Below, one piece after another: positions 38,075 to 39,660 of a stretch of 64,000 nucleotides of DNA. The stretch lies in IMG/VR virus record IMGVR_UViG_2526164690_000025, one strand, 5' to 3'. The DNA is from a virus. Its lineage: Duplodnaviria > Heunggongvirae > Uroviricota > Caudoviricetes. The notes beneath the pieces are model-generated. The model was not told where the DNA came from. It saw only the letters and a program-made list of their open reading frames with translations, and did not search any database. A program made the position numbers and the translations under genes. Positions within the stretch are counted from its first letter, which is position 1. Each line of letters starts with the position of its first letter.

Positions 38075-38540
38075 CAGGGTTTTCGTCATGGTTAGCGACT
38101 TTGCGGCGGTTTAGAAACTGACCATTAAAGTAAATGCAAACGATGATCTGATGATGGTAGCGGCCTAAGAAGCCAGATGCCACGGGGTATGAGTCGTCCC
38201 CCGTCAAAAAAATCGACCGCAGAGTGTCCCCGTCTGTGTATTAGGGAACGGGGAGGCACAACAGGTAAGGGCGCTGGTGTGATTAACCAGATGAACGAGA
38301 AGGGGCCATCTGTTGGTCAGCGTCCTTTCCTGTTGCGTTTTCTTTTCAGCGTAACAGCGGTGCTTAACAGCACTTTGGGTACAGTTCCACGAATTTACGG
38401 GTATATCCCGTCATGCTGAAGGCGCTAATCACGCTGGAAGCCAGGGTTATGCATCCCCTGTTACCGAATTGCAGCCAGGGCGCGGTGCGCCGAAAAGCAT
38501 ACGGAGGTGGAAGCCCTCGCCGGAGACGTACCCGGCAAGT

Positions 38541-38615
38541 GATGGTGTAGCTCAGCGGTAGAGCAGTTGGCTGTTAACCAACTGGTCGGTAGTTCGAATC
38601 CACCCACCATCGCCA
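38541..38615 (+). tRNA. tRNA-Asn (GTT)
   Basis: Cloverleaf: acceptor GATGGTG/CACCATC, anticodon loop CTGTTAA, T-loop TTCGAAT, 3' GCCA. Confidence 0.8.
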
Positions 38616-38620
38616 CTTTA

Positions 38621-38707
38621 GGGGAGTTAGTCCGTAGGGGTAGCGGGGTAGACTGTAAATCTACTGTCATTGCGACTTGGGTGGTTCGACTCCATCACTC
38701 CCCACCA
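38621..38707 (+). tRNA. tRNA-Tyr-like (GTA), class II with long variable arm; D-arm irregular
   Basis: Acceptor GGGGAGT/ACTCCCC, anticodon arm GTAGA-CTGTAAA-TCTAC, variable stem-loop, T-loop TTCGACT, 3' ACCA. Confidence 0.55.
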
Positions 38708-38711
38708 CATT

Positions 38712-38787
38712 GCCGATTTAGCTCAGTTGGTAGAGCAGTCGCTTTGTAAGCGAATGGTCAGCGGTTCGATCCCGTTAATCGGCACCA
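38712..38787 (+). tRNA. tRNA-Thr (TGT)
   Basis: Acceptor GCCGATT/AATCGGC, anticodon loop TTTGTAA, T-loop TTCGATC, 3' ACCA. Confidence 0.8.
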
Positions 38788-38790
38788 ACA

Positions 38791-38875
38791 TAACAGGTAA
38801 GAGCATTCTCCCTTATGGGGCCTGGCTTAAATGCATCGAGTGCTCTTACCGTTGTGATGAAGTGCAGATCTTAGA
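38791..38875 (+). repeat. structured repeat element 1 (inverted repeat ggtaagagca/tgctcttacc)
   Basis: Shares gtaacaggtaagagcattctcc and ccgttgYgRtgaaKgc blocks with element 3. Confidence 0.4.
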
Positions 38876-39023
38876 AGCAACCAGAAGATAAGCATCTGGC
38901 TTCACAACATAAACCGCAGGAACGACCAATAAACGGTAGTCCGTATGGAGAACACCCCGTTGAGGAAGAGGCCTGGCCGGAACCGTAACCGGCGACTGGT
39001 AATGTGTGTAAATGGAGCGAAAT

Positions 39024-39152
39024 ATGTGGGCGTTTAACGGGATACGGGTTGTAACAGCGATTATTAACGGCGAACTTAAGTATTCACGTTTCGAGACAAA
39101 TGAACGTGATGGGAAATGTATTGGTGTGCGGTTAGTAAGAGAATACGCATAA
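39024..39152 (+). CDS. possible 42-aa protein
   Basis: ATG with SD ggag 6 nt upstream; MWAFNGIRVVTAIINGELKYSRFETNERDGKCIGVRLVREYA; below the ORF-track size cutoff. Confidence 0.25.
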   Translation: MWAFNGIRVVTAIINGELKYSRFETNERDGKCIGVRLVREYA

Positions 39153-39162
39153 CAACTACAAC

Positions 39163-39262
39163 GTTGAGAACACTGGCGTAACGGGGTCATATCCCAATCT
39201 ACGAATAAATGTTGCGTTGCCGCGTGACAACCAGTGTTCTCAACATTGTGGTGAATGCACAG
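39163..39262 (+). repeat. structured repeat element 2 (14-bp inverted repeat gttgagaacactgg)
   Basis: Core cgtaacggggtcatatcccaatctacg resembles a tRNA T-arm (GGGGTCATATCCC); ends gtggtgaatgcacagg. Confidence 0.4.
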
Positions 39263-39433
39263 GCTGATGTGCCGCAACTACAGTAGTGCGCGCTTTGCGG
39301 GGCTTGCTACAACCCTGTGTCGGAGTTCAGCACCGACCATCACAGTTTGATTCTCTGGCATGAGCATAACGCTGAAATAAGTCCAGTCTGGTGCGGTCTG
39401 ATCACCCGCCGTTAGCTCCACGAAACGGAGCAC

Positions 39434-39524
39434 GTAACAGGTAAGAGCATTCTCCTGTAACGGGTTCATATCCCAATCTACAGGTCCACCAAGAATGCTC
39501 TTTCCGTTGCGGTGAATGCGGCTA
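39434..39524 (+). repeat. structured repeat element 3 (nested inverted repeats)
   Basis: aagagcattct/agaatgctctt and cctgta/tacagg stems around acgggttcatatcccaatc; ends gttgcggtgaatgcgg. Confidence 0.4.
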
Positions 39525-39660
39525 AGCGCACGCGGGGAAATGGTTATATCTGTCCATTATTTCTCCTTGTTTCCACGTCCACGGTGGATAACCAGCCAAA
39601 GGACACCGGGAGGAACCCGGCACCGCAGCTTTTTTATTCGTTAAATAATGGAGTGAGAGG

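Follow-up and report, generated by a model that had tools for sequence, protein, structure and literature searches.

The 64,000-nucleotide stretch analysed here (the window) belongs to a P1-type phage-plasmid, and positions 38075-39540 lie within the untranslated leader of its C1-repressed ban operon. We interpret this leader as a one-strand array of stable RNAs in which four hairpins of one family (E1 to E4) serve as processing or stability punctuation, a reading that we hold with slightly less than even confidence. In the proposed array, a dicF-like sRNA and its terminator would be followed by a tmRNA-derived tag-template module (M), E1 and a spacer, then by tRNA-Asn, tRNA-Tyr, tRNA-Thr, E2 and a second spacer with a small insertion, and finally by E3, a tmRNA 3'-end-like element (T), E4 and an STnc100-like RNA. 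The E hairpins are copies of a widespread phage RNA element that most likely acts at the RNA level. They would be double-stranded processing and/or stabilising signals that, within a polycistronic precursor, separate and protect M, T, the tRNAs and the mRNA that follows. The cargo looks like a translation-support kit turned on at induction, made of tRNAs and a tmRNA-type tag template. The tRNA species carried here are known targets of anticodon nucleases.

Organization of the ban leader

The region comprises the following features.

37856..37887, plus strand: C1 operator palindrome and ban promoter (Oban, P1ban/P2ban in P1), homologous to P1 features 68651-68696
37983..38075, plus strand: 'dicF-like region' of P1 (a P1 misc_feature), ending in an intrinsic-terminator hairpin
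38078..38256, plus strand: M, tmRNA-like tag module (covariance model, sub-threshold Rfam matches, covarying stems)
38136..38168, plus strand: tag reading frame GCA AAC GAU GAU CUG AUG AUG GUA GCG GCC UAA, encoding ANDDLMMVAA and a stop
38257..38337, plus strand: E1 hairpin, directly abutting M (MFE -41.7, z = -5.2)
38338..38540, plus strand: structured spacer, with homology limited to P1/P7/SJ46/D6 (fold z = -2.0)
38541..38615, plus strand: tRNA-Asn (GTT), by ARAGORN; Rfam 69.9 bits
38621..38707, plus strand: tRNA-Tyr (GTA), class II, CCA encoded, by ARAGORN; Rfam RF00005 42.2 bits
38712..38787, plus strand: tRNA-Thr (TGT), by ARAGORN; Rfam 67.8 bits
38789..38875, plus strand: E2 hairpin and GUUGUGAUGAAGUGC tail (MFE -34.6, z = -4.0)
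38876..38993, plus strand: spacer module common to Sashavirus and Citrobacter phage phiNP
38994..39154, plus strand: 161-bp insertion, absent from P1, P7, RCS47, D6 and SJ46
39155..39275, plus strand: E3 hairpin and tail hairpin GCACA-ggcuga-UGUGC (MFE -57.2, z = -5.4)
39390..39431, plus strand: T, tmRNA 3'-end-like hairpin pair, weakly similar to E. coli ssrA 327-361
39433..39512, plus strand: E4 hairpin (MFE -41.9, z = -3.4)
39506..39640, plus strand: STnc100-like structured RNA, below the Rfam STnc100 threshold (fold z = -3.2)

Sequence identity of the region to vB_EcoM-Ro157c2YLVW and many E. coli plasmids is 98.9-99.9%, and the annotation of P1 follows the same order (Oban/P1ban, dicF-like region, trnA, trnT, trnI, ban). 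The operator contains palindrome I4 with perfect spacing, and the ban promoter at this site is where transcription of the whole array starts. A terminator scan placed an intrinsic terminator at 38048-38067, which closes the dicF-like region with its U run; the Rfam DicF model has no match in that region. A previous sequence-only reading of this DNA had taken the hairpin for a methyltransferase terminator and had placed a plp-like gene after the interval. The hairpin instead sits downstream of the ban promoter and C1 operator of P1, and the next gene is in fact that of an SPFH/Band-7 lipoprotein, the plp and upl of P1 being minus-strand ORFs over E3 and E4. Downstream of the array are two small genes, tRNA-Ile2(CAT) and then ban.

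Single modules reappear, 72-92% identical, in gaps that lack annotation in other phages, including Sashavirus, Klebsiella, Citrobacter and Cronobacter phages, N4-like phages and Ackermannviridae. Neither this sharing with unrelated phages nor M and T had figured in the sequence-only reading. Homology to P1, P7, D6, SJ46, RCS47 and CMS-2020a breaks at E boundaries (38786/38793, 39155, 39164, 39269 and 39489), and the content between relatives varies in a cassette-like manner (tRNA-Ser, the 161-bp insertion, tRNA-Tyr, an Asn/Arg swap). Since the E stems are the main sequence that otherwise unrelated neighbours have in common, they also serve as joints for module swapping between phages. Searches of the literature with the tag peptides, with the stem sequences or with 'tmRNA-like phage' gave nothing relevant, and a P1vir transcriptome preprint does not treat the ban leader region.

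tRNA genes

The tRNA-Tyr-like gene with a GTA anticodon, suspected from the sequence alone, is a genuine tRNA, as it is called by ARAGORN and exceeds the Rfam tRNA threshold of 29 bits; tRNA-Asn and tRNA-Thr, which also pass this threshold, are genuine too. The 'irregular D-arm' ascribed to it corresponds, in the Rfam alignment, to a 2-nt insertion after position 9. It is a class II tRNA of the T4-phage type, near-identical to the tRNA-Tyr of the T4-type phage JB75 (Tequatrovirus), and alignment with the CMS-2020a and JB75 genes revealed a compensatory change in the anticodon stem (GTAGAC..GTCTAC versus GTGGAC..GTCCAT). The tRNAs are tightly spaced and co-transcribed as in T4-type phage clusters. 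Here, in contrast, the cluster belongs to a repressor-controlled operon of a temperate phage-plasmid and is cassette-variable among relatives, with Asn or Arg first, Tyr optional (it occurs in a subset of P1-like contigs) and Ser(UGA) also optional; a class II tRNA-Ser(UGA)-like gene is found within the interval in P7, D6 and CMS-2020a. Among 134 loci that bear M, 222 of 222 tRNAs share the orientation of M.

The E hairpins

The E hairpins form a family whose members are long and irregular and have hypervariable loops. Each has an irregular helix, 17-22 bp in length, in which a bulged A, a U·U mismatch and a G·U pair are conserved. The helix sits on a CACAAC/GUUGUG base, carries a freely variable loop and is followed by a GGUGAAUGC tail. 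Three structured elements had been described in the window. A repeat search recovered their arm pairs (38796-38809/38838-38850, 39155-39176/39231-39252 and 39440-39453/39492-39505), so that their positions hold, but there are four repeats: a 'short motif' noted at 38270-38284 is real, as a piece of a full member, E1, that had gone unnoticed. The shared blocks reported among the elements were confirmed, namely D5 (33 nt, 85%), D1 (25 nt, 96%) and a common 3' tail, D2.

The arms of E1 (38259-38276/38318-38335) are 18 nt long and 89% complementary. E2 starts 2 nt past the CCA of tRNA-Thr and shares 91.5% identity with a copy from Klebsiella phage MK54, which is unrelated. E3 has 22-nt arms that are 91% complementary, both mismatches being G·U on the plus strand; its stem sequence differs from that of the other E hairpins, but base, tail and the 25-nt loop motif are shared. 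The loop of E4 holds cctgta-ACGGGUUCAUAUCCCAAUC-tacagg-UCCACCA. All four copies fold better as the plus strand than as the minus strand (E2 on the minus strand: MFE -25.3, z = -1.7). Within the 64-kb window, close copies of the E arms, of the 25-mer and of the tail are confined to 38257-39512, all on the plus strand, a distribution on which we rejected a dispersed REP/MITE repeat.

The E hairpin is common to hundreds of other gut-bacterial phages. We collected 100 distinct classic copies from 1.1 Mb of phage loci by motif-anchored scans, an ungapped hairpin scan being prone to miss bulged members. In the stems of 84 distinct oriented copies from other phages, 828 pairs are Watson-Crick, 109 are G·U and 3 are A·C, which indicates selection on the tRNA strand, although a tolerance of G·T would also be expected of a folded single DNA strand. 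The U·U mismatch occupies a fixed position in 57 of these 84 copies. Further members keep the ACAAC..GUUGUG base with fully compensated stems (GUUGAGAACACUG/CAGUGUUCUCAAC, GGUAAGCUGCUUG/CAGGCAGCUUUCC, UGAGAGGCUCCUG/CAGUGGCCUCUCA). The loops of the 100 distinct copies range from 26 to 172 nt, the stem being the conserved part. Among 88 distinct contexts, E follows M in 32, a terminator U-run in 16, T in 8, a tRNA 3' end in 8 and a leader hairpin in 5.

The length of the E stems, with their bulged A and U·U mismatch, fits the helix of an RNase III site (about 20 bp, irregular, within a polycistronic transcript). RNase III would thus be the obvious candidate nuclease, judged solely from the length and irregularity of the helix; cleavage by this enzyme, the stabilising role and the physiological purpose are what we infer, the shown facts being strand, structure, covariation, conservation, co-orientation, mosaic breakpoints and the coding-type selection on the tag frame. 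Known RNase III hairpins, such as the T7 early R sites and the rRNA processing stalks, likewise form a family of related imperfect helices that are some 20 bp long, contain mismatches and lie beside stable RNAs, between the functional units of a single long transcript. E differs from them by its much longer, hypervariable loops, by a helix sequence conserved across unrelated phage families, and in that its cleavage is putative. Processing sites, one of the functions suggested earlier, are still the most economical reading of these repeats, which are structured and on the tRNA strand. Against a role as cleavage signals only, the size of the loops and their own structure hint that the loop may be a product, and the conserved bulge and mismatch could equally form a protein-binding site. 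The loss of E3 and E4 from SJ46 also counts against the punctuation reading, as neither copy is essential.

When the window and 20 related loci were scanned with Rfam, at gathering and E-value thresholds, no family emerged for the E hairpins. YrlA (RF02553) has a sole window match of 16 bits over the tRNAs, and none on E in the window or the other loci. A hammerhead-like CUGACGAG...CGAAAC...GUC arrangement was seen by eye in the 172-nt loops (L127, L065, L102), with no match at the Rfam gathering threshold. We also set aside three resemblances. As a general rule, the E stem is not a permuted acceptor stem with G3·U70, as the helix runs 0-5 bp past the G·U and no CCA follows; the GcvB-target-like CACAACA at the base (compare AgvB, PMC4104026) is base-paired in E; and the base (G)CACAAC...GTTGTGG mismatches both R''/R' boxes of attC (RYYYAAC...GTTRRRY).

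The tag module M and element T

Module M has a GGUUUUCG/GCGACUUUGCGG 5' part. An A-rich resume context leads into the tag frame, and two folded elements follow, an H-type pseudoknot and a hairpin whose loop is conserved (stem 38228-38233/38248-38253). Both pseudoknot stems covary (S1, 38182-38187/38199-38204; S2, 38193-38196/38214-38217). Stem counts were parsed alignment-free, since the MAFFT alignment has subtype-specific column offsets that would miscount. Candidate pairings for an upstream PK1 equivalent involve invariant bases.

The tag frame is under coding-type selection. It is exactly 10 codons long in 99 of 99 distinct M copies, which carry 17 tag variants, and it shows silent changes at third positions, with third-position variation in Ala/Val codons; an overlapping AUG frame in the M copies runs from 5 to 13 codons. 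No ATG, GTG or TTG lies between an in-frame TAG, eight codons upstream, and the GCA. M thus has the start-codon-free, coding-constrained frame at a resume codon that is expected of a tmRNA.

A covariance model built from 20 phage M copies matches 38089-38227 with 110.9 bits, its sole match in the 64 kb, and also finds M in Pantoea, Pseudocitrobacter and Escherichia genomes. M is present on at least 120 viral contigs, including lambdoid prophages, N4-like phages and Ackermannviridae. The same model has no match on E. coli ssrA, ARAGORN detects no tmRNA in the window or in 73 loci, and the Rfam tmRNA families score M below threshold (tmRNA_permuted, 24-27 versus 47 bits; alpha_tmRNA, 15-17 versus 50). 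A search for a G3·U70/CCA acceptor end for M found none, and promoter-proximal copies begin about 5-10 nt before GUUUUCG without an upstream acceptor strand. M behaves like the mRNA half of a tmRNA without a recognisable tRNA-like half. As that half is needed for trans-translation, a translation-support role of M has no known mechanism.

Element T comprises a T-arm-like hairpin (GCGG 39393-39396/CCGC 39406-39409), AGCUCC (39414-39419), ACGAAAC and GGAGC (39427-39431), the last of which closes the 'acceptor' locally. Its similarity to ssrA is weak (E = 0.17 for the lambdoid copy). T occurs in 12 sequence variants with covarying T-stems. Wherever it occurs, it lies 3' of M on the same strand and has an E hairpin after it; its loci are only 34 of the 134 that bear M. 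T does not form the tRNA-like domain of a tmRNA, being closed, with A3-U70 and ACGA after it.

The likeness of M to tmRNA lies in the resume context (UAAAU followed by GCA AAC GA), a 10-codon tag ANDxxxxxAA, a stop codon in a small hairpin and a pseudoknot after the frame. That of T lies in a downstream T-arm plus AGCUCCAC, as at the 3' end of ssrA, within a compact M-E-T unit of about 330 nt. In contrast to tmRNA, there is no G3·U70 acceptor stem and no free CCA, many M copies lack T, and M is embedded in a polycistronic leader with tRNAs and escapes ARAGORN and the Rfam thresholds. In a 2014 census, phage ssrA was found only in mycobacteriophages and Bacillus phage G, with a TLD-only form in DS6A (PMC4131195). 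M would be the converse of the latter, a form with the mRNA-like domain only.

Alternative readings

It is conceivable, though improbable, that the E hairpins are themselves the functional RNAs, the irregular helix docking a host or phage protein and the loop being changeable cargo, whether in a Y-RNA/Ro-like manner or as a decoy for a defence factor that binds dsRNA or tRNA. The fixed positions of the bulged A, U·U and G·U within an otherwise covarying helix agree with this, as do long, structured and diverse loops (T-arm-like hairpins in 9 of 100) and the presence of E in 'tRNA slots' behind the leader hairpin that precedes tRNAs. However, no Rfam family, YrlA included, matches any E, no candidate partner protein is linked to it, and hypervariable loops speak against a loop-specific function. 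In SJ46, moreover, a deletion between two 25-nt loop repeats fuses the 5' arm of E3 to the non-complementary 3' arm of E4, so that both copies are lost there and neither is essential. Homologous recombination between identical stretches of 14-25 nt accounts for this deletion, which weakens a further and quite implausible proposal, that the hairpins act on DNA as attC-, REP- or MITE-like recombination sites or miniature mobile elements shuffling cassettes. The breakpoints at E boundaries and the cassette-like content of the relatives would suit it, and E does recall integron attC sites in its imperfect palindrome with an AAC...GTT core, conserved ends, extrahelical bases, variable centre, strand bias and location between cassettes; its base nevertheless departs from the consensus boxes, no integron integrase context is expected, and the copies lie in one transcribed leader, co-directional with the tRNAs and other stable RNAs, unlike scattered mobile elements. 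We give as little weight to decayed tRNA genes or tRNA-derived minihelices, the picture favoured by the sequence-only reading. The cctgta/tacagg stem and T-arm described there are present in E4, together with UCCACCA, good T-arms (GGGTTCGAATCCC) lie beside the 3' arm in the loops of CMS-2020a, L020 and L069, and the tRNA-Ser(UGA)-like gene falls in the same interval. Yet the E4 stem and T-arm are one loop cargo among many: since a T-loop-like motif occurs in only 9 of the 100 distinct loops, a tRNA minihelix does not define the family, whose conserved 17-22 bp stem has no tRNA counterpart. Compensatory change maintains this stem, which is thus under selection and not decaying, and the tRNA-derived description of the family is largely refuted.

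We also think it unlikely, and a shade more so than for E as a product, that M, T and the E helices belong to a single rearranged, phage-encoded tmRNA-like machine. Here M and T would be collinear with ssrA from a D-loop analogue to the acceptor 3' strand, with GGAGC moved behind that strand; cleavage in the ACGAAAC loop might yield a split molecule with a free ...AGCUCC-AC end repairable to CCA, or the closed mimic might bind SmpB or ribosomes, and the products of stalled ribosomes would be given, or denied, a phage-specific tag. The tag frame argues for such a machine, as do the weak but repeated Rfam tmRNA matches on M at several loci, the resemblance of T to the ssrA T-arm plus CAGCUCCAC, its constant place 3' of M, the tmRNA-sized M-E-T unit of lambdoid prophages (321-339 nt), and GGAAGCGGGTTCAACTCCTGC of phiEa2809, 90% identical to the ssrA T-arm and lying within an E-type hairpin. 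It is opposed by A3-U70 in place of G3·U70 and ACGA in place of ACCA, by the scarcity of T, by promoter-proximal M copies that lack an acceptor strand, by the absence of an ARAGORN tmRNA call in any locus, by the failure of the M model to match E. coli ssrA, and by G·U pairs at no fixed distance from the end of the E helix. Finally, the interval might encode minus-strand Plp and Upl, as annotated in P1, with incidental RNA structures. ORFs of 143 aa (38846-39277) and 63 aa (39278-39469) are present, and are annotated in P1 and RCS47. Nevertheless, P1 Plp matches the window in three different frames, and RCS47 and P7 in two; P1 plp overlaps tRNA-Thr; Upl is absent from P7, D6 and SJ46; and the upl frame differs between the window and CMS-2020a by 2/7/9 changes at codon positions 1/2/3, the 18 substitutions causing 11 amino-acid changes. 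Pfam gave no hits for these ORFs. The protein reading is already contradicted and is the least credible of all. The earlier reading is supported in that the region has no conserved protein gene, and its own refuting condition, a conserved gene on the minus strand, does not hold. As a correction to its account, the stretch contains one orphan frame of 42-46 aa.

Implications

P1 is among the most used phages in genetics, and yet, for the 1.5 kb beside its tRNA genes, the annotation offers no more than two minus-strand ORFs, both doubtful. The RNA modules are shared piecewise by unrelated temperate and virulent enterobacterial phages, which points to a common set of parts that is invisible to current annotation (RefSeq, Rfam 15). 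On the punctuated-array reading, the E hairpin may well be a general signal by which phage stable-RNA operons are processed or insulated, and it also explains the recombination sites of such regions. M is more surprising, its missing half being supplied in an unfamiliar way or its tag template being used differently. It is possible, though we doubt it, that P1 and many enterobacterial phages carry a previously unrecognised, rearranged tmRNA derivative consisting of M, with T in a subset, framed by E helices. If so, it would be delivered alongside replacement tRNAs, and might be a new route for feeding a tag template to stalled ribosomes, with phage-specific degrons such as ...LMMVAA or ...FLAVA, or a decoy by which the SmpB-tmRNA system of the host is captured while infection proceeds. 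The finding links phage tRNA islands, host anticodon nucleases and ribosome rescue, and is directly testable.

Spacers, insertion and STnc100-like RNA

The spacer after E1 contains a small hairpin, acgggtatatcccgt (38397-38411), and a pre-tRNA 'leader hairpin', GCCGG..CCGGC (38517-38536). A second leader hairpin, GCCGGAACCGUAACCGGC (38973-38992), ends the spacer after E2. The orphan ORF (39012/39024-39152) lies inside the 161-bp insertion, whose only homologue is its own cluster, and has no Pfam match.

The RNA after E4 is closed by GUUGCGGUG/CACCGCAGC, followed by UUUUUUAUU. Positions 39508-39627 align to model positions 31-147 of 206 of STnc100 (RF02076), with 38 bits versus a threshold of 47. 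Like the STnc100 / PasD prophage sRNAs (Zhu, Shabalina & Storz 2026 preprint), this RNA has a prophage context beside tRNAs and a terminator-like end; it differs in its sub-threshold score, and the match is confined to the tail that follows E4 and leaves out the E hairpins themselves. The corresponding sites of P7, read from its sequence, are complementary: AUUGCGGUG (L004 2761-2769) and CACCGCAAU (L004 2871-2879).

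Identity of the locus and its operon setting

The window belongs to a phage-plasmid of the P1 type. Over the 1466 bases of the interval 38075-39540, identity is 98.9% with Escherichia phage vB_EcoM-Ro157c2YLVW and 99.7-99.9% with many E. coli plasmids; with P1, RCS47, P7, D6 and SJ46 it is, piecewise, 94-98%. The P1 annotation gives the following order at this locus:

at the dmt end, Oban (C1 operator) with promoters P1ban and P2ban
a 'dicF-like region'
trnA (Asn) and trnT (Thr)
plp and upl, two ORFs on the minus strand
tciABC, trnI and ban

It follows that the interval forms the leader of the ban operon, which is under repressor control. 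The hairpin and U-run at 38048-38067, previously taken for a methyltransferase terminator, lie downstream of the ban promoter and are therefore not the dmt terminator. In the window, two genes replace tciABC of P1, one for a 70-aa membrane protein (39661-39873, +) and one for a 275-aa SPFH/Band-7 lipoprotein (39877-40704, +; Pfam 1e-30), the latter named 'putative serine protease' in the RCS47 record.

The leader is an array of co-oriented structured RNAs under one repressible promoter, built of modules common to many phages. Each of the three tRNA genes was called by both ARAGORN and Rfam (threshold 29 bits).

38078-38256 (+), M, tmRNA-like tag module
38257-38337 (+), E1, hairpin
38541-38615, tRNA-Asn (Rfam 69.9 bits)
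38621-38707, tRNA-Tyr(GTA) (Rfam 42.2 bits)
38712-38787, tRNA-Thr (Rfam 67.8 bits)
38789-38875 (+), E2, hairpin
39155-39275 (+), E3, hairpin
39390-39431 (+), T, tmRNA 3'-end-like element
39433-39512 (+), E4, hairpin

A phage-borne tag module

M is conserved, directly follows the terminator and had been overlooked by the sequence-only reading. Its frame has an in-frame TAG eight codons upstream, with no ATG, GTG or TTG between this TAG and GCA 38136. From that GCA it reads ANDDLMMVAA up to the stop at 38166-38168, as compared with ANDENYALAA for the E. coli SsrA tag. The frame comprises 10 codons in 99 of 99 distinct copies, and the overlapping AUG frame 5-13 codons. There are 17 tag variants, including ANDDVVLMAA, ANEEMYLAVA, ANDEQFLAVA and ANDNEFKVAA, and the third positions of the Ala and Val codons vary. 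Downstream of the frame lies an H-type pseudoknot in which both stems covary (stem 1: GCAAGG/CCUUGU, GUGAGG/CCUCAU, ACGGGG/CCCCGU; stem 2: CCGA/UCGG, CCAG/CUGG, CCAA/UUGG, GUCG/CGAC). It is followed by a hairpin with covarying stems and a conserved loop, UGUGAUUAAUAA (UGUGUAUUAGGGA in P1). Promoter-proximal copies of M start a few bases upstream of GUUUUCG.

The resume-context pattern of M was found in IMG/VR on at least 120 viral contigs. M is also present in P1, P7, ECBP1 (N4-like), phiEa2809 (Ackermannviridae) and Klebsiella phage MK54. Among 5426 complete E. coli genomes, 660 carry it, and the RefSeq annotation shows nothing at these sites. A scan of species-representative genomes found it in only four, and M is therefore essentially phage-borne.

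The Rfam models of tmRNA_permuted, alpha and beta tmRNA score 15-27 bits on M at several loci, all under threshold. No detector called a tmRNA at the window or the compared loci, and a model of M gave no match to E. coli ssrA. M has the tag frame of a tmRNA and lacks its tRNA-like domain. The tmRNA Website census of 2014 listed phage ssrA genes in mycobacteriophages and Bacillus phage G only, the form in DS6A consisting of the TLD alone (PMC4131195). Text searches of the literature for the M tags and E stems found no description. In N4-like phages, odd tRNA-like sequences flank M (ECBP1 locus L012, 2310-2381 and 2673-2751) or lie downstream of it (loci L071 and L099). ARAGORN names them 'Ala(cgc)' and 'Cys(aca)', although their scores stay under the tRNA threshold of Rfam; one is marked as a pseudo-tRNA in the record.

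An element resembling the tmRNA 3' end

T (GGUGCGGUCUGAUCACCCGCCGUUAGCUCCACGAAACGGAGC) can be likened to the 3' end of ssrA (GGACGCGGGUUCAACUCCCGCCAGCUCCACCA), a resemblance for which BLAST support is weak by itself. Twelve sequence variants were found, and their T-stems covary. T occurs at 34 of 134 loci, invariably on the M strand and downstream of M, and an E hairpin always follows it directly. Lambdoid prophages have a compact unit of 321-339 nt made up of M, one E-type hairpin and T. This unit is collinear with ssrA from the D-loop analogue (GUUUUCGUC versus GGAUUCGAC) through the 3' strand of the acceptor. Unlike in tmRNA, however, the 'acceptor' of T is closed by GGAGC after a 7-nt loop; its third pair is A-U instead of G·U, and its tail is ACGA.

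The E hairpin family

The three repeat elements of the sequence-only reading lie where it had placed them and their common blocks are real, but a fourth full member, E1, had been missed. E1 to E4 fold with z-scores of -3.4 to -5.4 relative to shuffles, and in all four the plus strand folds better than the minus strand. Close copies of the E arms, the 25-mer and the tail occur nowhere else in the 64-kb window. In unrelated phages, E2 has a 91.5% identical copy in an unannotated gap of Klebsiella phage MK54, and its tail with the next spacer matches unannotated gaps of Sashavirus and Citrobacter phiNP. E4 and the stretch before it match unannotated gaps of Klebsiella prophages that separate the lysis genes from a late gene of the antiterminator type.

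We collected 100 distinct 'classic' copies from 1.1 Mb of phage loci matching parts of the interval. They are built of a CACAAC/GUUGUG base, a GGUAAGAGCAUU/AGUGCUCUUUCC stem and a bulged A. Their tail is GGUGAAUGC, behind which there is often a small hairpin with a GRCUGA loop. Their loops are 26-172 nt long (median 50) and have no common sequence. Across 12 scored stem positions in 84 oriented distinct copies, 828 pairs are Watson-Crick, 109 G·U and 3 A·C. At one fixed position 57 of these copies have a U·U mismatch, and at another 68 have a G·U. Members with quite different stems, E3 of the window among them, preserve base and geometry by compensatory changes. Rfam, permissive thresholds included, matched no family to E in the window and six other loci.

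The proposal that the elements are tRNA minihelices or decayed tRNA genes is only partly right. A T-loop-like motif is present in just 9 of the 100 loops, and the acceptor/T-arm look of the E4 loop is therefore one cargo among many. By eye, the 172-nt loops of three copies (loci L127, L065 and L102) are arranged like a minimal hammerhead ribozyme, GCGCGC-CUGACGAG-UCC..GGA-CGAAAC-GC..GC-GUC-GCGCGC; they gave no Rfam hammerhead match at the gathering threshold.

The start of E2 lies 2 nt beyond the CCA of tRNA-Thr, a slot taken in CMS-2020a by an E3-type copy, and in P7 and CMS-2020a tRNA-Ser is followed by another E-type hairpin. Among 88 distinct contexts, E is preceded by the tag module in 32, a terminator U-run in 16, T in 8, a tRNA end in 8 and, in 5, a GCCGG...CCGGC leader hairpin such as is found before tRNAs. 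Breakpoints of homology between the window and its relatives coincide with E boundaries. SJ46 carries a natural deletion (locus L006, 2346-2450) between the 25-nt repeats in the loops of E3 and E4 (39178-39202 and 39457-39481 of the window), which joins the 5' arm of E3 to the 3' arm of E4. This hybrid cannot pair, and E3 and E4 are thus dispensable for SJ46.

tRNA genes

The class II gene with a GTA anticodon is a tRNA, as had been proposed: it folds into a cloverleaf and encodes its CCA. Its irregular D-arm, also noticed earlier, corresponds to a 2-nt insertion after position 9 in the Rfam alignment. The tRNA-Tyr of the T4-type phage JB75 is almost identical, with a compensatory change in the anticodon stem. 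All 222 tRNAs at the 134 loci are on the M strand. In P1-like elements the first tRNA slot holds Asn or Arg(UCU), tRNA-Tyr is present in only part of the population, and further downstream some elements have a class II Ser(UGA)-like gene. The latter, of 87 nt, occupies the place of window 39270-39488 in P7 (L004 2567-2653), D6 (L005 2580-2666) and CMS-2020a (L007 3239-3325), and is missing from the deposited annotation of P7. The leader hairpin, GCCGG-N8/9-CCGGC, recurs in the window (38517-38536 and 38973-38992) and in other phages (L114 ~4684-4710; L028 ~1626-1650). There it is followed by CACCACAAC and adjoins tRNAs, E hairpins or terminators on their upstream side. The CCACCA behind its stem resembles a tRNA 3' end.

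Protein-coding candidates

The interval contains no conserved protein gene, in agreement with the sequence-only reading, and none emerged on the minus strand. Plp of P1 matches the window in three frames and RCS47 and P7 in two, and plp of P1 overlaps tRNA-Thr. P7, D6 and SJ46 lack Upl; in the upl frame the window and CMS-2020a differ by 18 substitutions, distributed 2/7/9 over codon positions 1/2/3 and altering 11 of 59 residues. Neither ORF has a Pfam match, and both were rejected as protein genes. A 161-bp insertion (38994-39154), missing from P1, P7, RCS47, D6 and SJ46, abuts the first base of E3 with its 3' boundary. It contains an orphan ORF of 42-46 aa, with GGAG 7 nt upstream of the second ATG, whose sole homologue is its own cluster (6 sequences, 19 contigs).

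Possible roles of the array

The favoured reading of the E hairpins is RNA-level punctuation, in which they would be double-stranded processing and/or stabilising signals. Their strand bias, the length and irregularity of their helices, their indifference to loop content and their placement right after each stable unit argue for this role. RNase III is the likely enzyme for such putative processing. Points against punctuation are the length and structure of the loops, the loss of two copies in SJ46, and a signature bulge and mismatch that a binding protein might use. The hairpins may also act as recombination joints.

The cargo places a tmRNA-type tag template alongside tRNAs for Asn, Tyr, Thr and Ile2, which suggests that it has a translation-support function at induction. 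Relatives carry tRNAs for Arg, Ser and Lys, and all these species are of the kind attacked by anticodon nucleases. E is an undescribed, widespread hairpin family and M an undescribed tmRNA-like module, in a phage that is a classical model.

Other features of the window

The Dmt methyltransferase ORF (34826-37867, +) encodes 1013 aa, the P1 gene being 2265 nt long. It has an intein-like insertion in the catalytic motif of the C5-methylase (GGTP/C...VVHN/CQAFS, slashes marking the junctions), with Pfam matches to Hint_2 (residues 77-126) and LAGLIDADG_3 (298-361) between both DNA_methylase parts. Matches to IS009 RNA (1011-1209, -) and IS10 RNA-OUT (5448-5517, -) indicate insertion sequences near the start of the window. 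C4 antisense RNA with its a1/b1 targets is present in two complete sets (15885-16092 and 43577-43782, +) that score above the Rfam threshold, and the 64 kb thus hold two immI-type immunity loci.
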